A stretch of 64,000 bases of DNA from an uncultured bacterium (GTDB taxonomy: Bacteria; Muiribacteriota; CAYSPT01). The DNA lies in NCBI GenBank assembly GCA_964593455.1, contig CAZQHK010000016.1:18339-82338 (forward strand), given 5' to 3'. Shown piece by piece: positions 9,085 to 29,855 of the stretch. The notes beneath the pieces were generated by a model. It had not been told where the DNA came from and searched no databases. It saw only the letters and a list, made by a program, of their open reading frames with translations. Position numbers and translations under genes: made by a program. Position 1 is the first letter of the stretch; every line of letters begins with the position of its first letter.

Positions 9085-9954
9085 TTGATAAACGTGAATA
9101 CGCCCGGCCCGGGCCCGGCCGGTATGGGTCCGAAACGGGTAGATATAACAGACGATATTTCGATAGGCCCGGGACTTTCACTGGTGCTTATAGCGGGACC
9201 CTGTGTTATCGAGTCGGGTGATCACTTGCTTGATATCGCGGCCAAGATGGCCGAGATCAGCCGTTCCTGCGGGATTCCGTATATCCTGAAAACATCATTT
9301 GATAAAGCCAACAGGACCTCGGGAAAATCGTATCGCGGGCCTGGCCTGGAAGAGGGTTTGCGTATCATGGCCGAGGTCAAAGAACGAACCGGCCTGCCGA
9401 TCCTGCTCGATGTTCACGAGCGGGACCAGATAGCTCCGGCGGCTGAAGTTGCCGAGATATTGCAGATCCCGGCTTTTCTCTGCCGTCAGACTGATTTTGT
9501 TCAGGACGTCGCCCGCTCGGGCCGGGTGGTAAATATTAAAAAAGGCCAGTTTCTTGCTCCCTGGGATCTCCGGCACGTGGTTGAAAAGATTGAGGCTGTG
9601 GGAAACACCAGAATTCTTCTTACCGAACGGGGAACTAGTTTTGGATATAACAACCTGGTGGTGGATTTCAGCGCGCTGCCGGTTATGGCTTCGCTCGGGT
9701 ATCCGGTAGTGTTTGATGCCACCCACAGCGTCCAGCGTCCCGGAGGGGCCGGTAACGCTACCGGCGGCCGCAGGCAATACGTCCGGCACCTGGCCCGGGC
9801 CGCGGTGGCAGTCGGCGTTGACTCCCTTTTTCTGGAAGTACATGACAGCCCGGATGATGCTCCATGTGATGGGCAGAATATGCTGTCGCTTGAAGAGATG
9901 CCGCTTTTGCTTGACGAGGTACTGTCGATCAGAAAAGCTTTGAATGGTAGGTAG
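9085..9954 (+). CDS. kdsA: 3-deoxy-8-phosphooctulonate synthase (KDO8P synthase)
   Basis: LIAGPCVIES and KTSFDKANRTS motifs, DAHP/KDO8P synthase family. TTG start at 9085; an alternative ATG start at 9124. Confidence 0.9.
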   Translation: MINVNTPGPGPAGMGPKRVDITDDISIGPGLSLVLIAGPCVIESGDHLLDIAAKMAEISRSCGIPYILKTSFDKANRTSGKSYRGPGLEEGLRIMAEVKERTGLPILLDVHERDQIAPAAEVAEILQIPAFLCRQTDFVQDVARSGRVVNIKKGQFLAPWDLRHVVEKIEAVGNTRILLTERGTSFGYNNLVVDFSALPVMASLGYPVVFDATHSVQRPGGAGNATGGRRQYVRHLARAAVAVGVDSLFLEVHDSPDDAPCDGQNMLSLEEMPLLLDEVLSIRKALNGR

Positions 9955-11278
9955 TGTGGAATTCTTTCGAAAAATCCTGGACACCCTCGGGGATGAGATT
10001 GTAGCACTTAAAGACGGTTCGACCGTCCAATGGGCGAACGAGACGTTTTGCAGCAACTGGAAAGTTACCCTCGGGGATTTGAGAAAACGACCGGTCTCTG
10101 AAGTACTGCCCGGTCCACGACTGGCGCGGGCACTTTTAAAAGGCCGATCGTTTAAAGCGCGTCTTTACACCGTGGGTGATGATTCTGCTCACGGCACAGC
10201 CCGCTACCGAGCCACGTATCTTCCGGCTATCTTGCCGGTCAGTTCCGGGACCTGGGATATACTGGTTCTCACTCCCATCAGCGGCAGTCCTTCCAGGGGT
10301 GTGGGCACGCACGCCAGGTTGACCTTCAGCGATATAATTGGCGTGAGCAAGGGTATAAAACAGGCCATCAGGACAGGAAAACTGGCGACCCGCCGGAGCA
10401 CCACGGTTCTCATTAAAGGAGAGAGCGGAGTTGGCAAGGATGTTTTTGCCCAGGCCATTCACAACGAGAGCGGCAGCAACCGCCCTTTCGTGGCCGTCAA
10501 CTGTGCCGCTCTCCCGCGTGAACTGATGGAAAGCGAATTGTTTGGCTACATGGGTGGATCGTTTACCGGTGCGGCCCCGGGCGGGCGGCCAGGAAAGTTC
10601 GAATTAGCCGACGGGGGAACTATCTTTCTGGATGAAATAGGCGAACTTCCTCTTTCCCTCCAACCAAAACTGTTGCGGGTATTACAGACCAAAGAAATCA
10701 CCAGGATAGGCGCTGAATGTTCGAAACCAGTGCAGGTCAAAGTCATTGCGGCCACAAAACAGGATCTCGAAGAGAAGGTCAGGGAGGGGTCATTCCGGGA
10801 CGATCTTTTTTACCGCCTTAATGTTATTACCATGCGTATTCCTCCGCTCAGAGAACGAGGCGATGATGTCCCGCTGCTGGTAAAACATTTTCTCTCGAAG
10901 ATCTGTCCTTCCATCGGGATACCGTGCCCGGAAGTGGACGATCCGGTCATGGAAGCATTGACCAGGTGCATGTGGCCGGGAAACGTCCGGCAACTGGAAA
11001 ACGTAATCGAGCGCGAACTTTTGTATCTGCCGGCAGGTGAACGGATCTTGAAGCACATACCCGATGAAGTTCTCCGGCCTGACAGTTCCATTGATCAGTG
11101 CGGTGAAGGTTCAGTCCGGGTCTTCCCGGGGGATGACTTGTCCCTGCGCGCCAAGGAAAAACAGATGATTATCCAGGCGATTGAGAGAGCCAGGGGGAAT
11201 ACCGCTGCCGCCTCCCGCATGCTCGGCATCTCACGGGCAACGCTCTATCGAAAAATGGAACGCTACGGCATAGAGTGA
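9944..11278 (+). CDS. Sigma-54-dependent transcriptional activator (bacterial enhancer-binding protein) with N-terminal sensor domain and C-terminal Fis-type HTH
   Basis: AAA+ sigma54-interaction domain with Walker A GESGVGKD. GSFTGA is a variant of the GAFTGA loop. FYRLNV motif. C-terminal RATLYRKMERYGI helix-turn-helix. Confidence 0.85.
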   Translation: MVGSVEFFRKILDTLGDEIVALKDGSTVQWANETFCSNWKVTLGDLRKRPVSEVLPGPRLARALLKGRSFKARLYTVGDDSAHGTARYRATYLPAILPVSSGTWDILVLTPISGSPSRGVGTHARLTFSDIIGVSKGIKQAIRTGKLATRRSTTVLIKGESGVGKDVFAQAIHNESGSNRPFVAVNCAALPRELMESELFGYMGGSFTGAAPGGRPGKFELADGGTIFLDEIGELPLSLQPKLLRVLQTKEITRIGAECSKPVQVKVIAATKQDLEEKVREGSFRDDLFYRLNVITMRIPPLRERGDDVPLLVKHFLSKICPSIGIPCPEVDDPVMEALTRCMWPGNVRQLENVIERELLYLPAGERILKHIPDEVLRPDSSIDQCGEGSVRVFPGDDLSLRAKEKQMIIQAIERARGNTAAASRMLGISRATLYRKMERYGIE

Positions 11279-11438
11279 CCGTGTAAAGACATTTTTTTAA
11301 AAAAATTAAACTTCAAATAACTCCCTCCCTCCGACTTATCCACACCTACTTGACCGCTAAAGCTGTGATTAATAGAGGTCTTAAAAATTATCAACAAGTT
11401 ATTAACAATTTATCCACAAGTTTTTCATAAAAAAATAC

Positions 11439-11466
11439 TTGCAAGCTGGGCTCAGGTGGGTATAAT
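11439..11466 (+). promoter_or_regulatory. Sigma70-type promoter of the dcw operon (-35 TTGCAA, 16-nt spacer, -10 TATAAT)
   Basis: TTGCAA at 11439-11444 and TATAAT at 11461-11466, about 70 nt upstream of the mraZ start, in the only sizeable intergenic gap ahead of the cluster. Confidence 0.45.
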
Positions 11467-11474
11467 AAGTTACG

Positions 11475-11515
11475 TAGTGGAGATCAAGTGGTGTTTAAGT
11501 GGGGTAAAGTGGGGG
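11475..11515 (+). promoter_or_regulatory. Array of four direct repeats (A)AGTGG(G) at 10-11 bp spacing, putative MraZ operator
   Basis: GTGG cores at 11477, 11488, 11499 and 11509, between the -10 element and the mraZ RBS. Helical-turn spacing and GTGG core match the MraZ binding-repeat architecture described for E. coli (TGGGN x3) and Firmicutes/Mollicutes (GTGG). Confidence 0.4.
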
Positions 11516-11538
11516 CGGATTAGTGAGGGAGGTCTTCT

Positions 11539-11964
11539 GTGTTTATTGGACATTATGAGCATACCGTAGATGATAAAGGGCGGCTCATAATTCCTTCCGA
11601 CTACAGAAAACTGCTCGGCAAACTGTTCGTCCTCGTCAAAGGCCTGGATAAAGCGATTACCATCTATCCCAAGGATGAGTGGGAAAAAGAAGCAAAGCGG
11701 CTATCCTCATTTTCATACCGGCAGAAGCATGTCCGTGATTACGTGCGGCCATTCTACGCTTCAGCCACCAAGGTTTCCCTGGACCGACAGGGAAGAATCT
11801 GTATCCCGATTACCCTGAGAAAGGAGGCCAGAATTCAAAAAGAAGTCGTTATCAACGGTATGGGAAGTTTTGCTGAAATATGGGCACGAGAAGAGTGGGA
11901 TCGCTTCAAGCAGGAAGCTGACGCAGTGTATGAAGAGAGGGCAGAATTGCTGGAAGAGATATGA
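11539..11964 (+). CDS. mraZ: Transcriptional regulator MraZ
   Basis: GTG start with GAGGGAGG RBS. FIGHYEHTVDDKGRLIIP and the second DxxGR repeat (DRQGRICIP) are MraZ signatures. First gene of the dcw cluster. Confidence 0.9.
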   Translation: MFIGHYEHTVDDKGRLIIPSDYRKLLGKLFVLVKGLDKAITIYPKDEWEKEAKRLSSFSYRQKHVRDYVRPFYASATKVSLDRQGRICIPITLRKEARIQKEVVINGMGSFAEIWAREEWDRFKQEADAVYEERAELLEEI

Positions 11965-12035
11965 GTATGTATTATGAGGGGGATTTAGACGTACGTATTA
12001 CTAAGGGGATCTAGAAGGAGGAGCGGGCGGTAGAT

Positions 12036-12521
12036 ATGATGCGACAGATACAAGATCACCAGCTGAGTACAAGAGAATCAGAGAAGGGGCTGGCAGCAAT
12101 ACTTACTGTGGCTGAAGCTTTGAAAAAAGAAAATGCAAAAGACAAACAACTTCAGAAACGGACTAAATCGAGTAAAAGTAAAATGTTTCAAGGTATGCAG
12201 GAAGAGATGACGTTTTCCGAGAAAATGAAATACCTGGACCAGCTTCCGGAACACAAGATGGCTCAGGGAAGTAAAGGCGATCGATATTTTGATATCGGCA
12301 CCTACCGGCCGTGGGGTATGGAGAGTATCAGTTTTCTGGTTGATATGATGCGTGAAAACGCGACTCCGATGGAAATAGCTTTTTTGAGCAGAAGATCATA
12401 CTACGATGTGCTGGCTATGCACCGTATTTACAAGTGGGTTATAAGGGAAGATTCTCAGGAGCGCCGTTTGCGTTTTAAGAAGAGGTTAAAAAAAGTAGTG
12501 GAAGCGGAAGAGGAGAGGTAG
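12036..12521 (+). CDS. Hypothetical protein inserted between mraZ and rsmH; possible small DNA-binding protein
   Basis: Strong RBS GAAGGAGGA ahead of ATGATG. 161 aa, Lys/Glu-rich N-terminus. C-terminal TPMEIAFLSRRSYYDVLAMHRI segment resembles a sigma-region-4-like HTH. No homolog recognised. Confidence 0.5.
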   Translation: MMRQIQDHQLSTRESEKGLAAILTVAEALKKENAKDKQLQKRTKSSKSKMFQGMQEEMTFSEKMKYLDQLPEHKMAQGSKGDRYFDIGTYRPWGMESISFLVDMMRENATPMEIAFLSRRSYYDVLAMHRIYKWVIREDSQERRLRFKKRLKKVVEAEEER

Positions 12522-12556
12522 AGAGTATTTCTGTCGCTGGTGGTCACTCGCCGGTT

Positions 12557-13465
12557 ATGGTACGGGAAGTACTGCACTATCTGAATCCATGTCCGGGAAA
12601 CAGATACGTTGACTGCACCGTCGGCGCCGGCGGACACGCTCTTGAGATTCTTAAAATTATTGGCTCCTCAGGCTCGCTGCTGGGTATAGACTGCGATTCA
12701 GAAACACTGACTTTAACTTCCCGGCGTTTGCAGCCGTGGCCAAACTTCATCCCCTTTCATGCTAATTTCTTCGAACTGTCTCGCATCCTGTCGGAAGTAG
12801 GGTGGACCGGGTTTGATGGGATCATGTTCGATCTTGGATTTTCATCTCTTCAGGTCGACGATCCCGAACGAGGATTCAGTTTTACCAGGGACGGTCCTCT
12901 TGATATGCGCATGGATCGAAAAAGCAACCGTTCGGCGGCGGACCTGGTTAATGATCTTTCAGAAAAAGAACTGGGTACGGTCATAAAGAAGTTGGGAGAG
13001 GAACCTCTGGCCAGGCGGCTGGCGCGGGCTGTGGCCCGGGAGAGAAAAAGGAGTCGGATACAAACAACGGGAGAACTAAAATCGATACTGGAAGGATCGG
13101 TTCCAACCGGGAATCCAATTCGTAAACAACTGGCGGTCAGGCGGACCTTCATGGCTCTGCGCATTGCCGTTAACCGTGAACTGGATGATTTGAGAGAGGT
13201 CTTGCAGACGGGAGTGAAGTACCTTCGTCCCGGAGGACGAATGGTAGTACTGTCATATCATTCGCTGGAAGACAGGATCGTGAAACATGCGTTTCGCGAC
13301 CTGTCGGGCCGTTGCACCTGTCCTTCTTGGGTGCCTGAATGCCGGTGTGAACCCAGAACATTGCTAAAAATCCTGGCTTCGAAGCCGATAATTCCAGAAG
13401 AGGGAGAAATACGGGGAAATCCGCGTGCACGAAGTGCGAAACTGAGAGCAATTGAAAGGTTATAA
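12557..13465 (+). CDS. rsmH: 16S rRNA (cytosine1402-N4)-methyltransferase
   Basis: DCTVGAGGHA SAM-binding motif, FDLGFSS and SYHSLEDRIVK motifs. The true N-terminus may lie a few codons upstream; HSPVMV resembles the canonical HIPVLL start. Confidence 0.9.
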   Translation: MVREVLHYLNPCPGNRYVDCTVGAGGHALEILKIIGSSGSLLGIDCDSETLTLTSRRLQPWPNFIPFHANFFELSRILSEVGWTGFDGIMFDLGFSSLQVDDPERGFSFTRDGPLDMRMDRKSNRSAADLVNDLSEKELGTVIKKLGEEPLARRLARAVARERKRSRIQTTGELKSILEGSVPTGNPIRKQLAVRRTFMALRIAVNRELDDLREVLQTGVKYLRPGGRMVVLSYHSLEDRIVKHAFRDLSGRCTCPSWVPECRCEPRTLLKILASKPIIPEEGEIRGNPRARSAKLRAIERL

Positions 13466-13468
13466 ACG

Positions 13469-13903
13469 GTGAGAGATCGCTCGATCATGCAATGGCGATA
13501 CGGAAAGAAGCACTCTCTCGCCATGTCCGGCTTAAATCGGGGGGACCAGCAGTCTCCTGCTTTATCCGGTGAAGGAAAACGGTGGGCCACCGGAGTTTCA
13601 AAGCTCCGCGGGGGGCGTCGCCTGGTGCTGGTCCTGGGGTATACCTGCCTGGTGGTTCTCCTCTCGGCCTTCGTGTTCCTGCATATTTCCCAGTATGTGG
13701 AAATGACGGAAATACAATTCAGAATTAGTAAGCTAAAAAGAGACTTTACCCGGATTGAACGGGATATTCAGGTTTTACAGTTCGAGTTTGAAAAGATGGC
13801 CAGTGCCACCACTATCGAGGCCGAAGCCGTCAGCCGACTGGGGATGGTTCATCCGTCGGAAATCATGTTTGTTCTTTGGAACGAGGAAGGGAAACCCAGG
13901 TGA
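13469..13903 (+). CDS. ftsL: Cell division protein FtsL-like (single TM helix plus coiled coil)
   Basis: Position between rsmH and ftsI. TM segment LVLVLGYTCLVVLLSAFVFL followed by a heptad-like region. Start codon uncertain. Confidence 0.6.
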   Translation: MRDRSIMQWRYGKKHSLAMSGLNRGDQQSPALSGEGKRWATGVSKLRGGRRLVLVLGYTCLVVLLSAFVFLHISQYVEMTEIQFRISKLKRDFTRIERDIQVLQFEFEKMASATTIEAEAVSRLGMVHPSEIMFVLWNEEGKPR

Positions 13904-16041
13904 GGGGACCGGTAGATCGTTGGCGCATCATTATTTTCGGCGTCATATGCCTTGTCTTCATGACACTGCTGCTGGTACGCCTTTTTGATATCCAATACCG
14001 ACAGGGTCCTCGTCTGAGGCGTTTGGCTCTTCAAGCACACGTAAAAAAAGTCATCATCGACCGCCAGCGAGGCACCATGACCGACGGCAACGGTCGTGTC
14101 CTGGCCGTCAGCATGAAAGTGCCGTCCTGTTTTGTCGATCCCAGCCAGATTAAAAATCCGGACGAAGTGGCTGCACTTCTCACTCCGCATATCAGGGGGG
14201 TTTCACCGGAAAAGCTCAAAAAGGCTCTTAATAAAAAAAGCCTTTTTGCCTGGATCGAACGAAAAATGGAAACCAAACGGGCTGCGGCCATCAAAGCGCT
14301 GAAGATCAAGGGAGTTTACTTTCAGAAAGAGTACAAGCGCTACTATCCCCGCGAGAGCATGGCCGCGAACCTGTTGGGATTTGTAGGTATGGACGACAAG
14401 GGACTCGAAGGAATCGAATATTTTTATGATAAGATCATGAAATGCGACTCCGGGTATGCCATGTACAAGGGAGATGTCCGGGGATATGAAATCCCCGAAA
14501 GCAACCGGGAAGAGAAACCTCCGGAAGGTGGATTTGACCTTGTGCTCTCTATCGATGAAGTCATTCAGCACATCGTCGAGGAAGAAGTCGGTAATGTTTA
14601 CCGGAAGTATAAAGCAGAGTCCGCCATGGGGATTGTCATGGACCCGCATACCGGTGAAATTCTGGCTATGGCCAACTTTCCCAGCTACAATCTTAACTCC
14701 TTTGCCAATACCAAAGCCTCCACCAGGCGAAACCGTGTCATCACCGATATGTTCGAACCCGGTTCGACCTTCAAGCTCATCATGGCTTCGGCTGCCGAGG
14801 AAATGGGGCTGGTTAACAGCATAGACCGGTTCGAATGCGACGGGAAAATACGTATTGGGGGGTTTACCATCCGTTGCCACGCCTCTCACGGCATCCAGAC
14901 TTTTACCCAGGTAATTGCCAACTCCTGCAATGAAGGTACGGTTGAAATGGCCAAGAAAATCGGAAAAAAACGGTTCTATGAGTATATCCGTCGGTTCGGC
15001 TTCGGCAAGAAGACTGGTATTGCTTTGCCGGGTGAGGTGCCGGGCCGGATTATGTCGTACAAACGGTGGGCGGATATCGACCTGGGAGCTATCGGTATGG
15101 GACAGGCGGTGGGGATTACTGCTCTACAGATGGTTTCGGCTGTATCTGCTATCATGAACGGCGGCCAGCTGGTCAAACCGCGGGTAGTGCTGGCGATTGC
15201 TGACCCTGAAACCGGCCGGGTTGTGAAGCGGTTCCCGAAAGAACTCAGGCAGCAGGCCATCTCTCCCGAGACCGCGGCAAAAGTGATCGAAATCATGAAA
15301 GAGGTCGTGGTTAGCGGTACCGGCCGTCGGGCAGCCATGAAAAATTACGTGTTGGCCGGCAAGACGGGAACAGCCCAGAAGATTGACCGTGAGACCGGTA
15401 AATACTCGAGTAAAAAAGTGATCTCTTCATTCATTGGCGGCGGACCTTTTCCCGACCCACGGTTTACCATCATGGTAGTCATGGACGAGCCTAAAGACAA
15501 ACGGGCTTCCACGGGTGTGGTGGCGGTAGAACCGTTTAAACGTATAGCTGAACGGTGTTTGAATTATCTTTCGGTGCCGCCTACGGTGGCCGAAGAATCG
15601 GACGATGTCAAAGCGGCTGGTGTGGCTCAGGCTCAGGCTGATGAAGATGTGGGCAGGCAATTCATGGTCCTGGTCCCCCGATTTTTGGGTATGGGAAAAG
15701 CCAAGGTTGAAAGTATCGCCCGGCAAAACGATATGAACATCGATCTGGGCGGTGACGGCCCGGTGGTGATATACCAGTCGCCCGAACCGGAAACTCCCAT
15801 CCTCCCCGAATCCCGTATCGTTGTCTACCTGGGCTATTCATATTCTACTCCGGTTTCTCTCTCCAACCGGATGATGCCGTGCCTGGTGGGTAAAACCATG
15901 ATGGAGAGCGGCGAAGAGTTAAGTCCGTATCCGGTCCTGGTCAGGTTCATGGGCTCCGGTCTGGCCTACGCCCAGGACCCGGTACCCGGCACCCCCCTGG
16001 AAACAGGCGCGGAAGTCAAAGTATTCTTCGCCGCGGATTAG
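13876..16041 (+). CDS. ftsI: Penicillin-binding protein 3 / FtsI (class B transpeptidase) with two C-terminal PASTA domains
   Basis: N-terminal TM, dimerisation domain and transpeptidase motifs STFK (FEPGSTFKL), SCN (NSCNEG) and KTGT (AGKTGTA). Two C-terminal PASTA-like repeats (VPRFLGMGKAKVESIARQ... and MPCLVGKTMMESGEEL...). Confidence 0.9.
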   Translation: MERGRETQVRGPVDRWRIIIFGVICLVFMTLLLVRLFDIQYRQGPRLRRLALQAHVKKVIIDRQRGTMTDGNGRVLAVSMKVPSCFVDPSQIKNPDEVAALLTPHIRGVSPEKLKKALNKKSLFAWIERKMETKRAAAIKALKIKGVYFQKEYKRYYPRESMAANLLGFVGMDDKGLEGIEYFYDKIMKCDSGYAMYKGDVRGYEIPESNREEKPPEGGFDLVLSIDEVIQHIVEEEVGNVYRKYKAESAMGIVMDPHTGEILAMANFPSYNLNSFANTKASTRRNRVITDMFEPGSTFKLIMASAAEEMGLVNSIDRFECDGKIRIGGFTIRCHASHGIQTFTQVIANSCNEGTVEMAKKIGKKRFYEYIRRFGFGKKTGIALPGEVPGRIMSYKRWADIDLGAIGMGQAVGITALQMVSAVSAIMNGGQLVKPRVVLAIADPETGRVVKRFPKELRQQAISPETAAKVIEIMKEVVVSGTGRRAAMKNYVLAGKTGTAQKIDRETGKYSSKKVISSFIGGGPFPDPRFTIMVVMDEPKDKRASTGVVAVEPFKRIAERCLNYLSVPPTVAEESDDVKAAGVAQAQADEDVGRQFMVLVPRFLGMGKAKVESIARQNDMNIDLGGDGPVVIYQSPEPETPILPESRIVVYLGYSYSTPVSLSNRMMPCLVGKTMMESGEELSPYPVLVRFMGSGLAYAQDPVPGTPLETGAEVKVFFAAD

Positions 16042-16302
16042 TTAAACCTGCATATTCTACCTTTCTTTCTACACTGCTTGCTTTTCATCTCAATCTCATA
16101 ATCTTAGATTCAGGCTGGTACGCTGCTATTGTCTTTTCGTCCACACCAGTGCTTGTCTTTCGATGACCTCAACCTCTCAAGAAAGAAACGTGGAAAGAAG
16201 GGTTGTCGATTCTGGAAACGGAAATACAAAATGCAGTATTTCAATCTTCTCCGAAACACGTGATTACTGGTACAATAAGCCATCTGATGGGAGGAGTATC
16301 GG

Positions 16303-17802
16303 TTGATTCTCAGAGAGATGTTGGAAGGTGTTTCCGTGCTGGAAATGGTGGGAGATATCTCGGTTGAGGTGACCGCCGTGGAGACCGATTCCAGGAAAGC
16401 CGTACCGGGGGCGCTCTTTGTCTGTGTTGAAGGACAGCGGTTTGACGGCCATGATTTCGTGACTGAGGCCGCTGCAGGCGGTGCCCGAACTGTTATCTGC
16501 AACCGGTCGGTGCTGGTGCCTGAAGGAGTGACTCGGGTGCTGGTGCCGGACACCCTGAAAGCGCTTTCACGGGTTGCCGCCATGTTCTACGGTTATCCGG
16601 CCCGGTCACTTTCGCTGATCGGTATCACCGGCACTAACGGCAAGACCACCACTTCGTACCTGGTCGAGTCCATCTTGAGACAGGCCGGTTACCGGACCGG
16701 GCTCATCGGGACCATCAAATACCATATTGGAGATAAAGAACTGCCGGCGCCTTTTACCACGCCGCTGGCCCACTCCCTGCACGCCATCTTCAGGCAGATG
16801 GTCGATGTCGGGGTTGAAGTAGTGGTGATGGAGGTATCCTCACACGCCCTGTCTCTTATGCGAGTGGAAGATTGTTCGTTTTCAGTAGCCGCCTTCACCA
16901 ACCTGAGCCAGGATCATCTTGATTTTCACCAGAACATGGAAGACTACTTTATCTCCAAACAGCGGTTGTTTGACCTGTTGGACGAATCCTGCGGAGTGCC
17001 GGTGATCAACATCGATGGTCTTTATGGAAAGCGTTTGCAGGCGAGAATGAAAAATATTCCCCGGATGATCACTGTTTCTGCAGGCGGAAGCAAAGAAGCG
17101 AACGTGAAAGCAGCAAATGTGATGGCGAGACAAAGTGTAACGTTATTTGAACTCCAGTTCCTTTTTGGATCAAACCCCGTGGAGCTTGGCTTAAAAGGGC
17201 GATTTAATGTCCAGAACGCACTGGTGGCCGCCGGCGCCGCCCTGGCTATGGGGATTTCCATGGATCGGATAGTGGCCGGACTAGAAGCCGTGAACGGGGT
17301 GCCCGGCCGCTTCGAGGCGCTCCAGGGCGGTGGGATAACGGTGATCGTGGATTATGCCCACACGCCGGCGGGGTTGGAGAACGTGCTTGTAGCTGTTCGT
17401 GAAATAACTGCCGGCAGGGTGATCAGTGTGTTTGGGTGCGGTGGCGACCGGGACCGGAAAAAACGGCCGCTTATGGGAGCGATAGGTGCCCGCTTGAGCG
17501 ATTATGTGATCCTGACGAGCGACAATCCCAGGACGGAAGACCCGGAAGAAATTATTGAGGAAATCACCTGCGGGGTAAACACGGTTGACGGGGCTTTGAA
17601 ACGGATGTATGTCGAACCTTCCCGGGCCGCCGCTATTGAGAGGGCCATAACCATGGCCCATCCGGGAGACACCGTGGTGGTGGCCGGCAAAGGACACGAA
17701 GACTACCAGATATTCAAGCACGAGACAATTCATTTTGATGATCGTGAAGTAGTGCGGATCATTTTGGGTAATATGAAGTTAAAAAAACATCGAGGGTCAT
17801 GA
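16303..17802 (+). CDS. murE: UDP-N-acetylmuramoyl-L-alanyl-D-glutamate--2,6-diaminopimelate ligase
   Basis: TTG start 6 nt after GGGAGGAG. Mur ligase motifs GTNGKTTT. DNPR motif (TSDNPRTEDP) indicates meso-DAP specificity. Confidence 0.95.
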   Translation: MILREMLEGVSVLEMVGDISVEVTAVETDSRKAVPGALFVCVEGQRFDGHDFVTEAAAGGARTVICNRSVLVPEGVTRVLVPDTLKALSRVAAMFYGYPARSLSLIGITGTNGKTTTSYLVESILRQAGYRTGLIGTIKYHIGDKELPAPFTTPLAHSLHAIFRQMVDVGVEVVVMEVSSHALSLMRVEDCSFSVAAFTNLSQDHLDFHQNMEDYFISKQRLFDLLDESCGVPVINIDGLYGKRLQARMKNIPRMITVSAGGSKEANVKAANVMARQSVTLFELQFLFGSNPVELGLKGRFNVQNALVAAGAALAMGISMDRIVAGLEAVNGVPGRFEALQGGGITVIVDYAHTPAGLENVLVAVREITAGRVISVFGCGGDRDRKKRPLMGAIGARLSDYVILTSDNPRTEDPEEIIEEITCGVNTVDGALKRMYVEPSRAAAIERAITMAHPGDTVVVAGKGHEDYQIFKHETIHFDDREVVRIILGNMKLKKHRGS

Positions 17803-17809
17803 GGTTCCC

Positions 17810-19198
17810 ATGGAAGAAACTTCTCTCAAAGACATTGCAGTCGCTGTTGGCGGGCGTCTTGCTGGTCTCCCCCCGGTAAAACCGTGTACCGGGGCGGCTG
17901 TGGACTCACGGGCTGTCCTGGCGGGTGACCTGTTCGTTCCAATTGCGGGAACCAGGACCGACGGTCATCGGTTCATTGTCGCAGCACTTCAAAATGGCGC
18001 ATCCGGATTCCTTTTCGAAAGCTGCCGGGCGGCCACGCCGGAGGTAGCGAAAGCTCTTCTTACCGCCACCGGCATCGGAGTTAAAAACACGCTGGCGGCG
18101 CTTCAAACCCTGGCCGGTTGGAACCGTTCCCGGCTCGGTACCTGGATAGCCGCCGTTACGGGGTCCAACGGTAAAACCACCACCAAGGAGATGATCGGGA
18201 GCGTTTTCAACCGGCAGGTATCGACCTATGTTTCGCTGGGAAACATGAACAACGATATCGGTCTGCCGCTTAATCTCCTCAGGATCGGACCAGAACACCG
18301 GGCCGCGGTCCTGGAGATGGGGATGAACCACCCGGGAGAGATCAGTCGTCTCTGTGAGTTGGCCCGGCCACACACCGGCCTAATCACCAATGTCGGCCCG
18401 GCTCATCTGGAATTCATGGGGACGCTTAAGAACGTAGCTCTGGCGAAAGGTGAGCTGCTGGACGGCTTATCAGACGGGGGGACGGCTGTTCTTAACATCG
18501 ACGATCCCTGGGTGCGGAGAATCGGGGAGGGGTTCAAAGGGAAGACAGTATGGTACGGATTTTCTCGGGACGCTGCGGTCCGGGCCGAAAAGGTACACAT
18601 GAGCGGCGGTGGTTCGACATTTAATCTCATAGTGCCCGGAACTAATGGATATACCGTTACTCTCGGAGTGCCTGGTGAACACAATATCATGAACGCGCTG
18701 GCCGTAGCCGCGCTGGCCTGGCTTAAGGAAATTGATCCGGATCATGTGGCGGCGGCCATGGCTGCGTTCACACCGGTCCACGGACGCCTGGAAGTCCTTG
18801 AGGGAGCTGGCTGGATCGTAGTCAATGACTGCTATAACGCCAATCCGGCCTCCCTGGCTGCCGGGTTGAAGGCGGCTGAAAACCTGAATGGAAAACGCTT
18901 GGTAGTAGTGCTCTCGGACATGCTGGAACTGGGGGAAGCCTCCGACAGCCTTCATCGGAAATGTGGTAGATTGGTAGCGGCTTCACATGCTTCGCTGCTC
19001 TTCGTGTGGGGAGATTATGCCGATTCATACTGTGAGGGAGCCCTGGAGGGCGGTCTCCCGGCTGATGGTGTCGTCATGTGCATGAACAAGGACGAATTGG
19101 CACGACGAGTGAGGGAAACAGTTACCGATGGGGACGTGGTGCTGGTGAAAGCCTCACGGTCACGGTCGCTCGATATGGTTACGGAAAGGCTTCTCTAA
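17810..19198 (+). CDS. murF: UDP-N-acetylmuramoyl-tripeptide--D-alanyl-D-alanine ligase
   Basis: GSNGKTTTKEM Mur ligase P-loop. Position after murE. Typical length. Confidence 0.9.
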   Translation: MEETSLKDIAVAVGGRLAGLPPVKPCTGAAVDSRAVLAGDLFVPIAGTRTDGHRFIVAALQNGASGFLFESCRAATPEVAKALLTATGIGVKNTLAALQTLAGWNRSRLGTWIAAVTGSNGKTTTKEMIGSVFNRQVSTYVSLGNMNNDIGLPLNLLRIGPEHRAAVLEMGMNHPGEISRLCELARPHTGLITNVGPAHLEFMGTLKNVALAKGELLDGLSDGGTAVLNIDDPWVRRIGEGFKGKTVWYGFSRDAAVRAEKVHMSGGGSTFNLIVPGTNGYTVTLGVPGEHNIMNALAVAALAWLKEIDPDHVAAAMAAFTPVHGRLEVLEGAGWIVVNDCYNANPASLAAGLKAAENLNGKRLVVVLSDMLELGEASDSLHRKCGRLVAASHASLLFVWGDYADSYCEGALEGGLPADGVVMCMNKDELARRVRETVTDGDVVLVKASRSRSLDMVTERLL

Positions 19199-19201
19199 CA
19201 G

Positions 19202-20257
19202 GTGTTCACCTATTTTTTCAACTCGATATCCCTGCGTACCATCTACTCTATTCTCACGGCGTTCCTGATGGTTATCGTGCTCTCCCCCCGGATGATAAGA
19301 CGCATGAAAAAGCGGTCGCTCGGACAGTCTGTCAGGAATGACGGACCGGAGACGCACCTGAAAAAAGAGGGTGTACCGACCATGGGGGGCCTGGTTATCC
19401 TGATTGCCATCGTGGTGACCAGTTTGCTCTGGACGAAACCCTGGGTAAGGCAGGTGTATATAAGCCTGTTCGTACTTTTATGCATGGGGTTATTAGGGTT
19501 CGTGGACGACCTGATGATGTTGCGCCGCAAAAACCACACAGGCTTGTCGGCCAAAAGTAAATTATTTTGGCAGGGCCTGGTGGGTTTGGCCTGCGGGCTC
19601 TACCTGGTATCGACACCTTACCTGAACGGATTCGAGTCGTTTATCAATGTTCCCATTTTGGGAAAAGTTGACCTCGGATTTTTCTATGTGCCGTTCGTGA
19701 TCTTGGTTATCATGGGCTCCTCCAACGCGGTCAACCTTACCGACGGACTGGATGGGCTGGCCTGCGGAATCTTGAGTATCGTTGGTTTGGCCTATGCCGG
19801 GATCTCGTATATCACGAGCCATGAAGTGTTCAGCATGCATCTGAACATATTCCATATTCCCGGGGCCGGTGAATTGACCATCTTTTGCGGCGCCATCCTG
19901 GGCGCCTGCCTGGGATTTTTGTGGTATAACTCTTATCCTGCCCAGATCTTCATGGGGGATACCGGTTCGCTTTCACTGGGGGCAGCTTTAGGGACGGTAG
20001 CAGTATTGACCAAGAGTGAAATCGTCCTGGTGGTCATCGGTGGTATCTTTGTTGTCGAGGCCTTATCGGTAATAATCCAGGTTACCTCCTTCAAGATGTG
20101 GGGCAAACGAGTGTTCAAGATGAGCCCGCTTCATCACCATTTCGAACTCAAAGGCTGGGCTGAACCCAAGGTAGTGTTCCGTTTCTGGGTCATCACCTTC
20201 GTGCTGGCGCTCCTGGGATTGAGCGTCTTTGGGATGAATACTATTTTTCGCCAGTAA
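19202..20257 (+). CDS. mraY: Phospho-N-acetylmuramoyl-pentapeptide transferase
   Basis: GTG start. Polytopic membrane protein with MraY motifs PTMGG, NAVNLTDGLDGLA and MGDTGS. Confidence 0.95.
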   Translation: MFTYFFNSISLRTIYSILTAFLMVIVLSPRMIRRMKKRSLGQSVRNDGPETHLKKEGVPTMGGLVILIAIVVTSLLWTKPWVRQVYISLFVLLCMGLLGFVDDLMMLRRKNHTGLSAKSKLFWQGLVGLACGLYLVSTPYLNGFESFINVPILGKVDLGFFYVPFVILVIMGSSNAVNLTDGLDGLACGILSIVGLAYAGISYITSHEVFSMHLNIFHIPGAGELTIFCGAILGACLGFLWYNSYPAQIFMGDTGSLSLGAALGTVAVLTKSEIVLVVIGGIFVVEALSVIIQVTSFKMWGKRVFKMSPLHHHFELKGWAEPKVVFRFWVITFVLALLGLSVFGMNTIFRQ

Positions 20258-20317
20258 TGGAGTATACTGGTCCCTGAGCGTAATTGGTGGATTGCTCGGG
20301 TAATCCACGGATAAAAT

Positions 20318-21241
20318 GTGAAGCGGAAGATCAGGCGGATGGAACCGACGGCGGATTTCTCCTTTGTAATGAAAGTTCAGTTTCGGGAACGGGACTTGAA
20401 CCTGGTCGGATTCTATGTTGTTCTTGCCTCAGTGGAAAAAGCGGCGGTATATAAATGTGCAGCCGTGGTTAACTTCTTTTCAGAAAGTTTTACCCAGAAA
20501 TTCAGCCTCACCTCTTCCTGGGTACGGTTCCTTGATCTGGTGGCTGATGAGTATTCCGATCTGGGCACGCGCGACTTGAAAGAATACTCGGAGAGTATCC
20601 GGGATTTGTACCAGGAGTATCTTCCCGAACGTATGGCCAGGATGTTGAAAATCGTCTTAGATATTACCGATCAGAATGTCCAGAAAGTAATGATGGACGA
20701 ATTGATCAAGGAAGATCTCCATTCTGTTTTACCGGGAGGAAACATTGCAGTAGAGTGCACCTGGGAGACCCTGGGGCAGGAAGAAAAAAAAGAGAAGAAA
20801 AAACAAAAAGAGCCGTCTCGCCAGGAAGTGCCGTCACCGAGTGATAGCGGAGCCATGGAACCGATGAGGACCATTACTACCCTTTCCGTGGAGCCGGAGA
20901 TAGACCCGGTAAACGGCGTGCCGGCCTGGCAACTCAAAGTCGGAGACGAAATCGACATTATTGTCAACCGCTGCCGCAATTTGCGGGGAAATGGCAAAAT
21001 TCTGTCAATGTTCTCGCCCCGGCCGGGATCGGACAACCTGGTTATCACTATGGAACTGTCTACCGATCTTCGAGGACAAATGATGGTTAACCGGGGAATG
21101 ATGCTCAAATCCGGGAAAGTCAAGGCCACTCTGTTCCAGGGCAGATTGACATCCGAATTGTTCTTCTATTTAATCCTCGCCTTCTCCGCCCTGATTTTCG
21201 TGTTATTCATCATCGCCCTCGGCCTGATCATGACCGGCTAG
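20318..21241 (+). CDS. Hypothetical C-terminally membrane-anchored protein inserted between mraY and murD
   Basis: 307 aa with a Lys/Glu-rich central linker and a single C-terminal TM helix LFFYLILAFSALIFVLFIIALGLIM. No recognised domain. Start codon uncertain (GTG 20318 or ATG 20339). Confidence 0.45.
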   Translation: MKRKIRRMEPTADFSFVMKVQFRERDLNLVGFYVVLASVEKAAVYKCAAVVNFFSESFTQKFSLTSSWVRFLDLVADEYSDLGTRDLKEYSESIRDLYQEYLPERMARMLKIVLDITDQNVQKVMMDELIKEDLHSVLPGGNIAVECTWETLGQEEKKEKKKQKEPSRQEVPSPSDSGAMEPMRTITTLSVEPEIDPVNGVPAWQLKVGDEIDIIVNRCRNLRGNGKILSMFSPRPGSDNLVITMELSTDLRGQMMVNRGMMLKSGKVKATLFQGRLTSELFFYLILAFSALIFVLFIIALGLIMTG

Positions 21242-21252
21242 TCCGCCAAGTC

Positions 21253-21275
21253 ATTCGCCGGTTTAACCGGCGAAT
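21253..21275 (+). other. Perfect stem-loop ATTCGCCGGTT-T-AACCGGCGAAT immediately after the stop of CDS 20318-21241
   Basis: 11-bp perfect inverted repeat with a 1-nt loop, 12 nt downstream of the TAG stop. No U-tract follows, so it is not a classical intrinsic terminator. It could attenuate transcription or stabilise the transcript. Confidence 0.3.
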
Positions 21276-21505
21276 CCACTGTGACTGGCAACACTGTCAA
21301 TCTATCAAGCAAGCAGGAAATTTTACCCGGGCGGAGGCTTGTCCTTTCCTCCAAACGTATGGGCAAACATTGAGATGTAGCGGAAACCGGGTGGTACCAC
21401 CCTCAAGCAAGACGTGTGGAAAGTGAAATCGGATGACTTAACCGTGTTCACATACGATATCTACACATCCGTGATACAATATTCCAGGTGGATGAAGATG
21501 TAATT

Positions 21506-22978
21506 ATGGATACAGATATTAAGCGCGTATTGAGAGACAATATGAAAACAGAAACCGAACGCTTCGACCTCTCGGGGCGGACCGTGGCGGTAGTGGGTTT
21601 GGGGAAAAGCGGCCAGGCAGCGCTCAGTGTCCTGCTTCAAGGAAAAGCCGGGAACTCATGCCGGGTCATCGTCAGCGAATCCCGATCTGATGGAGTTCTG
21701 GAATCGCTTCCTGGAGAGCTTCGCCGGGGAGTGGCTGCCATTCAGACCGGGGGACACACCGGGGAGTTTCTAGGACAGGCTGATTTCATTATTCTAAGTC
21801 CCGGTGTCCCTATCACCGCCCCGGCCGTGGTCTCGGCAAAAAAAAGTGGTGTCCCTGTTGTTTCTGAAATGGAGTTTGGATACCGGTTGATCGGCTGCCC
21901 CGTGGTGGCTATAACGGGGACCAACGGAAAGACTACTACCACCAATCTGACCGGCGAAATGTTTTCACGGGCCGGCTACAAGGTGGAAGTGGCCGGCAAT
22001 ATCGGGCGGCCGCTCAGTGATGTCGTCGCCGCCGGTGAGCAGCCGGACCTGGTGGTCCTGGAGGTGTCCAGTTTTCAACTGGAGGCGGTCCGGCAGTTTA
22101 AGGCGAACGGGGCGTTAATTCTCAATGTAACCCCGGATCATCTTAACCGTCACGGTACTTTCGAGACTTACGCGGATGTCAAGTTTAGGGTGTTCGACCG
22201 GCAAAGACCAGACGACGTGGCGGTTCTAAACCTGGATGACCCGGTTAGCAGAGACTATATCCTGGCGTGTGAAAAATTAGAAAAACCAAATGGTGATGGA
22301 ACTGTCCTCCTGTTCAGCCGATACCGGCCCGTTACCGCCGGTGTCTCTGTCGCCGCGGGGAAAATTTTGTTCAGACCCCATGGACCGGGAAGAGAATCTG
22401 TTGAAGTGGCCGGCCTCGATGATGTCAGGCTCCGGGGGGAACATAACCTGGAGAACGTGCTGGGAGCGGTGGCGCTCGGGTGCGGATTGGGGCTTTCGCC
22501 GGAACCCATCAGAAAAGCTATCAGGACTTTCGAAGGAGTTGTTCACCGGCTGGAGAGCGTGGCCATGGTGGGGCAGGTGGAGTTCATCAACGATTCCAAA
22601 GCCACTAACGTGGCTTCCACGAGATGTGCCGTAAAAGCTCTGGATAAACCGTTCATTATTATCCTTGGCGGTTACGACAAAAATGCTGATTTCACTGAAC
22701 TGGCGGGGGATATCGCCGATCTGGGCATCCGGACGGTGCTCATGGGAGATACCCGTTTTAAGATAGCGACGGCCTTGAAAAAAACTGGACACAATCGGAT
22801 GTGGAAAGTGCCCGATCTTGACGCGGCGGTGGAGAAAGCATGGGAAATTGCCGATAATGAAGATTGTATATTGTTATCCCCGGGGTGTGCCTCATTTGAT
22901 CAGTTCTCAAACTTCGAAGAGCGAGGAAACCGGTTCAAAAAATTGGTCATGGAGCTGAAAGATCGGTTTTCCCGATAA
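21506..22978 (+). CDS. murD: UDP-N-acetylmuramoylalanine--D-glutamate ligase
   Basis: VVGLGKSGQAA Rossmann N-terminus and ITGTNGKTTTT Mur ligase P-loop. Alternative GTG start at 21488. Confidence 0.9.
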   Translation: MDTDIKRVLRDNMKTETERFDLSGRTVAVVGLGKSGQAALSVLLQGKAGNSCRVIVSESRSDGVLESLPGELRRGVAAIQTGGHTGEFLGQADFIILSPGVPITAPAVVSAKKSGVPVVSEMEFGYRLIGCPVVAITGTNGKTTTTNLTGEMFSRAGYKVEVAGNIGRPLSDVVAAGEQPDLVVLEVSSFQLEAVRQFKANGALILNVTPDHLNRHGTFETYADVKFRVFDRQRPDDVAVLNLDDPVSRDYILACEKLEKPNGDGTVLLFSRYRPVTAGVSVAAGKILFRPHGPGRESVEVAGLDDVRLRGEHNLENVLGAVALGCGLGLSPEPIRKAIRTFEGVVHRLESVAMVGQVEFINDSKATNVASTRCAVKALDKPFIIILGGYDKNADFTELAGDIADLGIRTVLMGDTRFKIATALKKTGHNRMWKVPDLDAAVEKAWEIADNEDCILLSPGCASFDQFSNFEERGNRFKKLVMELKDRFSR

Positions 22979-22993
22979 CGGGCTGGATAGGTA

Positions 22994-24211
22994 ATGGATG
23001 CTGCCGTCGAGACACTGAATATTAGAGCGTCTATACACAAGTTGGGCGCTTTCCTGCAGCGCAAGATAGAAGGAAGGTCTACGCAGGCCTTTGATATCCT
23101 GCTCTTCGGTACCGTTGTCACGCTTACGGCGGTGGGCCTCATCATGGTGTACTCGTCCGGTTTCGTAACCGCCCTGAAAGATTTCAACAACAGTTTGTTC
23201 TTCTTCCAAAAACAATTTATTTCTTGCATGGTCGGTATAGTCTTCCTGCTTTTTTTCATGAACTTCGATTACCGGAACTTAAAAATCCTGGCCGTACCGA
23301 TTCTGGTCTTAAGCTACGTTTTGCTCTTCATCGTGTTGATCCCCGGTCTTGGTCGGAGCAACTATGGTGCGCAACGGTGGCTGGTAGTGGGGTCTCTTAG
23401 TTTCCAACCGTCTGAATATGCTAAGCTGGCCGTAATTATTTTCATGGCTTCGTTTTTGTCCAACAAATCGCGCGATCCACGGTCGTTCAGGAAGTTTGTT
23501 ATGCCTGGTCTGGTCATTACCGCTACCATGGCTGCCCTGATCATGGCCCAGCCTGATTTGAGCACGGCGGTTTCCGTATCCGTCCTGGTGTTCGTGCTGC
23601 TCTTCCTGGCCCGGGCCCAGATCCGGCACCTGTTGATCACCGGCGGGGTCGGGATGGTGTCGGTATTCATACTCATCATCACTGAAGGATATCGGTTGCG
23701 GCGGTTCTTGGCGTTTCTCGATCCCTGGAAAGACATGCGGAAAGACGGCTACCATATTATCCAATCGCTGCTGGCGATTTCCGGCGGTGGCCTGTCCGGC
23801 GTGGGTCTGGGCAAGAGCATTCAGAAGTTTCTCTACCTGCCAAAACAATACAACGATTTTATTTTCGCGATTATAACGGAAGAACTTGGTATCTTGGGAG
23901 CATTGTGTATCATCGCGTTGTTCGTCTTATTTCTCTGGCGGGGCTTGAAAACAGCCATGGACGCACCGGACCGTTTTGGCGGGTTATTGGCCGGTGGGTT
24001 GGTGGCTATGGTGGTTATCCAGGCGATTCTTAATATCGGTGTCGTGCTCAGTTTCTTTCCCACCACCGGCCTTCCACTTCCGTTTATTAGTTTTGGCGGA
24101 TCGTCTCTCGTAATCAATCTCTGCGCGGCCGGAATCCTGCTCAATATCTCCCGGCGCCGGATAACCAAGCAGAGAAAACTAAAAAAGCGGCGTATCAGTC
24201 CGGCGGCATAA
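22994..24211 (+). CDS. ftsW: Peptidoglycan glycosyltransferase FtsW (SEDS family)
   Basis: 10-TM SEDS protein with QPSEYAKLA and the ITEELG...FGGSS C-terminal blocks. Position between murD and murG. Confidence 0.9.
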   Translation: MDAAVETLNIRASIHKLGAFLQRKIEGRSTQAFDILLFGTVVTLTAVGLIMVYSSGFVTALKDFNNSLFFFQKQFISCMVGIVFLLFFMNFDYRNLKILAVPILVLSYVLLFIVLIPGLGRSNYGAQRWLVVGSLSFQPSEYAKLAVIIFMASFLSNKSRDPRSFRKFVMPGLVITATMAALIMAQPDLSTAVSVSVLVFVLLFLARAQIRHLLITGGVGMVSVFILIITEGYRLRRFLAFLDPWKDMRKDGYHIIQSLLAISGGGLSGVGLGKSIQKFLYLPKQYNDFIFAIITEELGILGALCIIALFVLFLWRGLKTAMDAPDRFGGLLAGGLVAMVVIQAILNIGVVLSFFPTTGLPLPFISFGGSSLVINLCAAGILLNISRRRITKQRKLKKRRISPAA

Positions 24212-24240
24212 TTTTTGTCATTATTGCTGGGGCGTAAAAA

Positions 24241-25419
24241 ATGAAAACACACAAGGCAAATCGGGTTATCCTTTTTGCGGGTGGAGGGACCGCTGGGCAT
24301 GTAGTCCCGGCATTGGCGGTGGCTGAAGTTATCAGGAAGACCGGTGCCGCCCGGGCCTGTTTCTGCGGAAGCACCTCCGGTTTCGAACAAGAACTTGTTG
24401 CTTCCGCCGGATTTCCGTTTGTTTCCATTCCCACCGCGCCATATTTGCGACGCTTCGACCGGTCCCTGGCAAAATCAGCGCTCCTTAACTCCTTTGGTTT
24501 GGCAAAAGCCTGTATGCTCATTCACCGCCTCCGGCCTGCAGTCGTGGTGGGCATGGGAGGATATGTCAGCGTCCCGGTGGGAATCGCTGCCGTTTTGAAC
24601 CGATGTCCGCTTATCCTGCACGAACAGAACTCAATTCCCGGCCTGGGAAACCGCCTCCTGTCACCGCTGGCTGAGCTTGTGTGCGTGTCGTTTCCTTCCA
24701 CGGTACAGTGTTTTCCACAGGCGGTCTGGACGGGGAATCCGGTGAGATTCGCTCACGAACAGGCAACCTCGACCGGTAAAAGGAAAAAATCGAAAACGCT
24801 ACTATGTTTCGGAGGTAGCCAGGGCGCCGGCTATATCAACACCTTGCTACTCGATTCGCTTACACACCTGATGACTGCCGGAATTACGCTTAAATGGGCC
24901 GCTGGACGGACCGATTTCTCCAGAGTAAACAAAGTACTTAACGGCCTGTTTGCGGCAAACCCGTCCTGGAAAAAGCGGATTGATCTCAATGAATACATAA
25001 CTGATATGGAAACGGCTATGATGGCGGCCGATCTGGTGGTAGCCAGGGCCGGAGCCACCACCATTGCCGAGTTGACGGTACTGGGAAAACCGGCTCTGCT
25101 TATACCGTTTCCCCATGCCACCGATAATCATCAGGTCGTGAACGCCAGGCAGTTGGAGCGCTCCGGCGGCTGCCGGGTGATCGAGCAACGCGAGCTCGGA
25201 TTTCCCGGGGCTTCAGCCGTTGAACTGTTTGTTACACAACTCCAGGATTTACTCGATAACCGTGACGAGCTTGATGAAATGGAACGGTGTTCCGGTAATT
25301 TTGGAAAAAAGGGTGCTGCATATTCCGTTTTTCGTATTATAATGCAACACATATCGAAAATCTCCGGCAGTGCCCCTATTTCCGGGGCAATGGAAGATCC
25401 ATGGGGGAAGACAGGATGA
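24241..25419 (+). CDS. murG: Undecaprenyldiphospho-muramoylpentapeptide beta-N-acetylglucosaminyltransferase
   Basis: FAGGGTAGHVVPALAVAE N-terminal G-loop. GT28 family fold. Confidence 0.9.
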   Translation: MKTHKANRVILFAGGGTAGHVVPALAVAEVIRKTGAARACFCGSTSGFEQELVASAGFPFVSIPTAPYLRRFDRSLAKSALLNSFGLAKACMLIHRLRPAVVVGMGGYVSVPVGIAAVLNRCPLILHEQNSIPGLGNRLLSPLAELVCVSFPSTVQCFPQAVWTGNPVRFAHEQATSTGKRKKSKTLLCFGGSQGAGYINTLLLDSLTHLMTAGITLKWAAGRTDFSRVNKVLNGLFAANPSWKKRIDLNEYITDMETAMMAADLVVARAGATTIAELTVLGKPALLIPFPHATDNHQVVNARQLERSGGCRVIEQRELGFPGASAVELFVTQLQDLLDNRDELDEMERCSGNFGKKGAAYSVFRIIMQHISKISGSAPISGAMEDPWGKTG

Positions 25420-26390: not shown

Positions 26391-26400
26391 GCGAGATCTG

Positions 26401-27375: not shown

Positions 27376-27388
27376 GAGGTGCGTTCCA

Positions 27389-28624: not shown

Positions 28625-28697
28625 CGTTTCCTTATCCGGTCGGTGAATACCGACGGGGATAGATAAAAAGAGAGAATCGCGAAGGAGGTAGTGGGAG

Positions 28698-29815: not shown

Positions 29816-29855
29816 AACGGAGGCTTTGCAAATCAAAGCCTCCGTTTTTATTTTG
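29816..29855 (+). terminator. Rho-independent terminator after ftsZ
   Basis: 12-bp stem AACGGAGGCTTT / AAAGCCTCCGTT with a 7-nt loop, followed by TTTTTATTTT. Confidence 0.7.

Follow-up and report, generated by a model that had tools for sequence, protein, structure and literature searches.

A putative MraZ operator with four GTGG boxes at the mraZ promoter of an uncultured Bacillota-like bacterium

Known MraZ operators and the locus compared with them

In Bacillus subtilis, repression by MraZ has been demonstrated for the mra operon (mraZ–mraW–ftsL–pbpB) and requires three GTGG[A/T]G boxes as well as both DXXXR motifs of the protein (bioRxiv 10.1101/2022.02.09.479790). No second triple repeat of this kind, with its 4-nt spacers, occurs in the B. 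subtilis genome; the one present is situated at the mra promoter (bioRxiv 10.1101/2022.02.09.479790). In Escherichia coli, autorepression by MraZ is reported at Pmra, which carries three GTGGG/TGGGN repeats (Eraso et al. 2014). The Mycoplasma genitalium operator consists of three AAAGTGT-N3 units followed by AAAGTGG, and its mapped transcription start site lies inside box 1; mutation of the boxes, one by one, weakens MraZ binding and repression stepwise, and a cryo-EM structure places four subunits of the opened MraZ ring on the four boxes, with K13, R15 and R86 contacting the GTG(T/G) box (PMC12957436). In M. gallisepticum, overexpression of MraZ has been reported as activating (cited in PMC12957436). 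The MraZ protein of the same species binds (GTGTTAN5)2 in vitro to much the same extent as its native site (PMC5282649), and an 11-nt period is thus tolerated.

Here we analyse the mraZ promoter region of an uncultured bacterium in a 64-kb stretch of DNA (64,000 nt; hereafter, the window), in which four GTGG boxes lie between a predicted sigma-70-type promoter and the Shine–Dalgarno sequence of mraZ (Table 1). Its sequence and its likeness to the characterized systems indicate that the array is very probably an autoregulatory MraZ operator of the mra/dcw promoter, acting in repression.

The corresponding region of E. coli K-12, read from its sequence, runs from the promoter TTGACA-18-TAAACT through 7 nt to GTGGG-N5-GTGGG-N5-GTGGG, a Shine–Dalgarno sequence and ATG. 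The two regions share a sigma-70-type promoter, in-phase GTGG boxes that begin 7–10 nt past the −10 hexamer, a Shine–Dalgarno sequence and mraZ, whereas E. coli has three boxes with a 10-nt period and the window has four at intervals of 11, 11 and 10 nt behind TTGCAA-16-TATAAT. With M. genitalium the window has in common a set of four boxes in direct repeat, each a GTG(G/T) core behind A-rich sequence except for box 1 of the window, followed by mraZ; a −10 element upstream of box 1 with the start at or in that box (predicted, in the window); and the residues K13, R15 and R86. The M. genitalium array differs in its 10-10-10 period and its mostly GTGT cores, in contrast to the 11-11-10 register and uniformly GTGG cores of the window. 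Moreover, M. genitalium is a wall-less Mollicute, whereas the host of the window has a full 16-gene dcw cluster. The GTGG core is also common to B. subtilis, which has three boxes with a 10-nt period. Outside the MraZ systems, the HsdC site of M. gallisepticum resembles the window array in its direct GTG-core repeats, 11-nt period and, as predicted for the window, overlap with the core promoter, but it has a GTGTTA core and two repeats, belongs to a restriction–modification operon and is read by an HTH controller protein (PMC5282649), a context that the window lacks.

The original prediction had presented the four units and their location downstream of the −10 hexamer as departures from the architecture expected for MraZ autoregulation. 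Neither sets the locus apart: the E. coli boxes also lie past −10, M. genitalium also has four, and of 48 distant mraZ loci that could be classified, 39 have the −10 hexamer ahead of every box, the commonest gap to the first GTGG being 8 nt. As judged from the sequences compared, only two features are specific to the lineage: four full-strength boxes outside the Mollicutes, and conserved 11-nt intervals.

Anatomy, non-randomness and conservation of the array

The promoter TTGCAA-16-TATAAT and four GTGG cores starting at 11477, 11488, 11499 and 11509 had been claimed beforehand; the promoter reads directly at 11439–11466, and the cores lie at exactly those positions. In context, boxes 1 to 4 are tAGTGGa, AAGTGGt, AAGTGGGG and AAAGTGGGGG, with start-to-start distances of 11, 11 and 10 nt, and 9 nt separate the −10 hexamer from AGTGG of box 1. 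In a promoter scan of the region, TTGCAA-16-TATAAT ranks first, with 10/12 matches, but the scan as a whole does not exceed chance (3 sites versus 1.9 expected), so that it is the position and conservation of the promoter, not the scan result, that support the call. By analogy with characterized promoters, transcription would start at about 11473–11476, 6–8 nt past the −10 hexamer; since the conserved promoter ends 10 nt ahead of the first GTGG, this predicted start falls at or just before box 1.

Table 1 Features of the mraZ promoter region and the dcw cluster (positions in the window)
Feature	Position	Strand	Remarks
DnaA-box cluster (predicted)	11336–11418	+	Boxes at 11336–11344, 11388–11396, 11399–11407 and 11410–11418; apart from the putative MraZ operator
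−35 hexamer TTGCAA	11439–11444	+	Predicted sigma-70-type mra/dcw promoter; identical and equidistant from the boxes in L001 and L086–L088
−10 hexamer TATAAT	11461–11466	+	16-nt spacer; GTATAAT identical in L001, 10 nt to the first GTGG in both
Putative MraZ box 1, AGTGG	11476–11480 (core GTGG 11477–11480)	+	Kept in L001 and in strain variants L004/L005
Putative MraZ box 2, AAGTGG	11486–11491 (core 11488–11491)	+	11 nt after box 1; kept in L001
Putative MraZ box 3, AAGTGGGG	11497–11504 (core 11499–11502)	+	11 nt after box 2; repeat family D4; AAGTGGGG identical in L001
Putative MraZ box 4, AAAGTGGGG	11506–11514 (core 11509–11512)	+	10 nt after box 3; core kept in L001 as TGTGGGGG
Shine–Dalgarno sequence GAGGGAGG	11525–11532	+	6 nt ahead of the mraZ GTG start (11539)
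mraZ (141 aa)	11539–11964	+	First gene of the cluster; Pfam MraZ, E = 1.6e-33
ORF161	12036–12521		Between mraZ and rsmH
Co-directional dcw cluster	11539–29753	+	Presumed driven at least partly by the mraZ promoter
Loci with a perfect DnaA box	300 nt upstream of mraZ		L016, L018, L022, L036, L040–L042, L048, L049, L054, L056, L058, L059, L062–L064, L070, L076, L082, L084

Three further elements of the region were considered and set aside. A fifth GTGG at 11456, which falls in the −35/−10 spacer 21 nt ahead of box 1, has not been kept in the sister lineage L001 and was not counted as a box; nor was a GTGA that follows box 4 by 14–15 nt in both lineages, because it is off register and overlaps the Shine–Dalgarno region. 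A sigma-54 promoter was rejected for lack of a GG 10–11 nt upstream of the TTGC at 11439, in the window and likewise in L001. Separately, CCTCCCTC at 11324–11331 is a perfect complement of the mraZ Shine–Dalgarno sequence, 193 nt away. Such pairing would be relevant only to transcripts reading through from the upstream gene, and it is not kept in L001; no terminator was detected between the two elements.

The array is not a random arrangement. The pattern AGTGG-N6-AGTGG-N6-AGTGG occurs once in the 64 kb and in 0/100 shuffles, and the window holds a single four-long chain of GTGG at 10–11-nt spacing, whereas chains of at least four were found in 0/500 dinucleotide-preserving shuffles (chains of at least three, in 4.2%). 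Tandem Repeats Finder (TRF) also picks up the box array, with period 11. No other chain of at least three GTGG boxes lies within the 64-kb window. The two-box pattern GTGG-N6/7-GTGG has 10 matches, three of which are the array itself; the seven outside it compare with 4.8 expected in total, and two-box sites elsewhere in the window are at chance level.

A scan of genome contigs with the single MraZ protein yielded one relative, L001, and a metagenome scan combined with alignment and exact look-ups provided the wider set. The sister lineage, comprising L001 and L086–L088 (uncultured metagenome-assembled genomes; 68% MraZ identity), is the sole other close lineage. Upstream of mraZ in L001, TTGCAA-16-(G)TATAAT and 9 non-conserved nt are followed by AGTGG, AGTGG, AGTGGGG and TGTGGGGG at 11-11-10. 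In a gapless alignment of the window with L001 from the −35 hexamer to box 4, the hexamers and GTGG cores are identical at 28/28 positions, as against 21/50 elsewhere (Fisher p = 5e-8), and the core positions are identical to the window at 16/16 in L001 and L086–L088 alike. Two strain variants of the window itself (L004 and L005) differ from it here by 3 substitutions and an insertion of 1 G, all outside the cores; the spacers flanking box 2 have changed both in these variants and in L001. The array, the hexamers and the 11-11-10 register have therefore been kept in the sister lineage while the spacers diverged.

For a broader comparison, we assembled 78 distinct mraZ upstream regions from distant loci, whose MraZ proteins are 35–47% identical. 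At least two in-phase GTGG boxes were present in 70 of these 78 regions, and the sequence of box 4, AAAGTGGGG, is their top 9-mer, found in 35 loci. Box spacing is 10 nt in 105 of 114 intervals across 79 mraZ upstream regions, the window and L001 among them; 11-nt intervals are rare in other mraZ regions and are kept in the lineages of the window and L001. Of 80 regions, only 3 have four or more GTG[GT] boxes in phase, namely those of the window, L001 and L044. The L044 array, about 30–80 nt upstream of mraZ, reads GTGG, GTGT, GTGG, GTGG, GTGG with spacing 11-10-10-10, and arrays of at least four boxes are on this account sporadic outside the Mollicutes.

The gene behind the array is, by its sequence, a bona fide mraZ. 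Its product scores 111.7 bits against the NCBIfam equivalog TIGR00242, above the cut-off of 98.35, and the GTG start codon is fixed by N-terminal alignment (MFIGHYEH versus MFxGEYxH). Both DXXXR motifs, DDKGR (residues 11–15) and DRQGR (residues 82–86), are invariant in an alignment of 20 MraZ homologues, with D11, K13, G14, R15, D82, G85 and R86 as the invariant residues. Residues 1–130 align without gaps to 1n0e and to the M. genitalium MraZ chains 9qlr, 9sx6 and 9qlg, taken from structures solved with and without DNA. Because the alignment is gap-free and the numbering the same, the DNA-contacting K13, R15 and R86 of the M. genitalium complex have counterparts at matching positions in the MraZ of the window.

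A model for autorepression and its alternatives

The intact mraZ, the match of the motif to 78 distant loci and the conservation of hexamers, cores and register in the sister lineage support the claim of the original prediction that the array is an MraZ operator. Of the marks by which such an operator would be recognized, four are present: a position at mraZ and the dcw cluster, at least three GTG(G/T) repeats about one helical turn apart, a cognate MraZ with its motifs, and boxes that are kept while spacers vary. Two features of the array count against this reading, namely the missing A-rich 5′ flank of box 1 and the departure from the canonical 10-nt MraZ period, by 1 nt, in two of the three intervals. 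By arithmetic, the three intervals add up to 32 bp, or 10.7 bp per box, which is nearer to the ~10.5-bp helical repeat than the canonical 30 bp.

MraZ binding, the start position and repression rather than activation are carried over to this locus from the characterized homologues, and the mechanism that we propose is to be read in that light. MraZ, whose gene is the first to be transcribed, would assemble as an oligomer, and the DNA-binding 'cradle' motifs of four adjacent subunits (K13, R15 and R86) would each enter the major groove at one GTGG box, in four consecutive grooves. All boxes would lie on one face of the DNA, at approximately +1 to +40 of the predicted transcript; with a start at 11473–11476, box 1 would span about +1 to +7 and box 4 about +33 to +40. 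The open complex of RNA polymerase covers roughly −55 to +20. Boxes 1 and 2 would thus lie inside the region that the polymerase needs for open-complex formation and promoter escape, and MraZ bound to them would compete with initiation, while boxes 3 and 4 would contribute cooperative affinity. MraZ sitting over the initiation region would lower transcription of mraZ and the genes downstream, at least ORF161–rsmH–ftsL–ftsI and possibly the whole 18-kb cluster, and the outcome would be negative feedback on the dosage of division and cell-wall genes.

Activation or fine-tuning by MraZ bound at the same boxes, for example by recruiting or stabilizing RNA polymerase, is distinctly unlikely. The direction of regulation is not readable from sequence, and the overexpression report from M. 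gallisepticum makes its sign less than certain; against this, positions from about +1 to about +40 are classic for a repressor, and such boxes have been shown to mediate repression in both B. subtilis and M. genitalium, with a report to the same effect for the identically arranged E. coli region. We regard it as very unlikely that a different protein reads the repeats; the candidates are an HsdC-like controller, ORF161 as an HTH protein specific to the lineage, and the product of the upstream sigma-54 activator gene. The two 11-nt intervals do equal the period of the HsdC motif (GTGTTAN5)2, and both ORF161, with its HTH-like fold, and the syntenic sigma-54 activator accompany the 11-11-10 register in both lineages. 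However, the HsdC core is GTGTTA and not GTGG, the promoter lacks a sigma-54 −24/−12 element, and AAGTGG(G) precedes mraZ in dozens of lineages that have neither ORF161 nor this synteny; another reader is unparsimonious when the same motif stands before mraZ where the other lineage-specific features of the locus are missing.

A role at the RNA level, with the boxes forming part of a structured or protein-binding 5′ leader that controls translation or stability of the mraZ message, would suit their G-richness and their place within a predicted 65-nt 5′ untranslated region, but we hold it to be extremely improbable. Rfam yields nothing at E ≤ 1 in 11250–12100 and nothing at the gathering threshold in the whole window, the fold of 11474–11545 (−8.2 kcal/mol, z = 0.18) is no better than those of shuffled sequences, and direct-repeat cores kept at a fixed register, with no complementary partner, are what a DNA site, rather than a helix, would show; together these observations make such a leader unlikely. 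That the array arose by chance from G-rich composition near a ribosome-binding site is next to impossible. GTGG is indeed frequent (585 copies over the two strands of the window), yet the shuffles contain no four-box chain, the register has been kept in a lineage whose spacers diverged, which refutes this explanation, and the array sits exactly where the MraZ motif sits in other bacteria. Autorepression by MraZ thus stays the preferred reading of the array.

Genomic context and significance

The cluster behind the promoter contains, in order, mraZ, ORF161, rsmH, an ftsL-like gene, a class B PBP gene (PBP/ftsI), murE, murF, mraY, ORF307, murD, ftsW, murG, ddl, ftsQ, ftsA and a last ORF (28698–29753), presumed to be ftsZ from its position alone. 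It is followed by a strong terminator with a 13-bp stem at 29816–29846. Control of the whole dcw operon by the array, as originally proposed, is overstated: the genes are co-directional from 11539 to the terminator, but two non-coding gaps (261 and 247 nt) and a promoter-like site at 26401 allow internal promoters, which may uncouple the distal genes. The first gap (16042–16302), between PBP/ftsI and murE, may hold an internal promoter or leader, and no Rfam match was found in it. The second (21242–21487) contains TGATACAAT, an extended −10-like sequence, just ahead of the murD start, and comes after ORF307 (20318–21241, + strand), a 307-aa ORF between mraY and murD for which neither Pfam nor NCBIfam has a match. 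The site at 26401–26429 (+ strand), TTGTTA-17-TATAAT extended by TG (10/12 matches), coincides with the start of the ftsQ ORF and is, by its sequence, a candidate internal promoter for ftsQ, ftsA and the last ORF.

Genes mraZ and rsmH are normally adjacent; here they are separated by ORF161, which only the sister lineage shares, at 75% identity and thus above the conservation of MraZ. A profile search with ORF161 identified about 20 distant clusters of small proteins that have a domain of ~90 aa in common. Both of the relatives whose surroundings were inspected lie in phage-like early/replication modules, one with RecT, Lin1244_N and IstB and the other with DUF2800 and YopX. The AlphaFold model built with 17 sequences reached a pLDDT of 82.8, and that built with two sequences, at 50.6, was too poor to use. 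A Foldseek search against viral structures returned nothing at E ≤ 0.001, and sequence comparison linked ORF161 neither to the GcrA family nor to any solved GcrA chain. ORF161 looks like a phage-derived HTH gene that has become fixed inside the mra operon.

Directly upstream of mraZ lies a gene for a sigma-54-dependent activator (9944–11278, + strand) with AAA+ and Fis-type HTH domains and no detected receiver domain; the same activator precedes mraZ in both lineages (L001, 1338–2669; L086, 1–1166). In both it follows a kdsA-type gene (9085–9954, + strand, in the window) of the DAHP_synth_1 family, for KDO-8-phosphate synthase of the LPS pathway. The closest named relatives of the genome are Bacillota, and the presence of this gene hints at a diderm Bacillota-like lineage. 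The closest named relatives of the CTP synthase, at about 60% identity, are Thermosediminibacter, Desulfofundulus and Halanaerobiales, and the host is an uncultured, deep-branching Bacillota-like bacterium whose lineage is represented by metagenomes only.

Apart from the putative MraZ operator, a cluster of four predicted DnaA boxes, all on the + strand, ends 20 nt ahead of the mraZ −35 hexamer. The perfect copies of TTATCCACA at 11336 and 11410 are two of three in the 64-kb window, and TTATCAACA (11388, 1 mismatch), TTATTAACA (11399, 2 mismatches) and TTATCCACA (11410) stand head to tail with an 11-nt period. A DnaA-box cluster has been defined as at least three boxes, imperfect copies included, that lie on average less than 100 bp apart (PMC7561715), and the four predicted boxes of the window form such a cluster. 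It is kept in the strain variants, with the first box mutated in L004/L005, and is absent from the sister lineage L001. DnaA control has been reported for the B. subtilis yllB(mraZ)–ftsL promoter (PMC2533591), and predicted DnaA boxes upstream of mraZ in the window fit this target.

Among the 78 distant mraZ upstream regions, 20 contain a perfect DnaA box (TTATCCACA or TGTGGATAA), which ties for third place among the 9-mers. Perfect boxes are about 100 times denser upstream of mraZ than in the rest of the loci (22 in 22.7 kb versus 2 in 207 kb; shuffle mean 0.34). Among the one-mismatch matches to the DnaA box, some are in fact MraZ boxes (GTGGATAA), but this does not hold for the perfect copies in reverse orientation. 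These counts suggest that the link between DnaA boxes and the mraZ promoter may be broader than B. subtilis. A more far-reaching interpretation, in which the 11-11-10 register with four full-strength GTGG boxes reflects a distinct MraZ–DNA assembly, its spacing close enough to the helical repeat for four subunits to share one side of the DNA with no need to untwist it, and the locus works as a three-input switch (MraZ, DnaA and ORF161), is unlikely; if true, it would couple replication status to division-gene dosage.

The autoregulatory operator, as read here, would extend MraZ autoregulation through GTGG direct repeats, a design of textbook standing, to an uncultured lineage, and so widen its taxonomic spread rather than the concept. 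In practice it provides a clean promoter and operator annotation, and the operator by itself opens no new question. Four full-strength boxes, hitherto stressed for some Mycoplasma species, also occur outside the Mollicutes (3 of 80 sampled regions). The two lineages further indicate that a register lengthened by 1 nt can be stably inherited, and they offer a natural spacing variant for studies of MraZ–DNA geometry.
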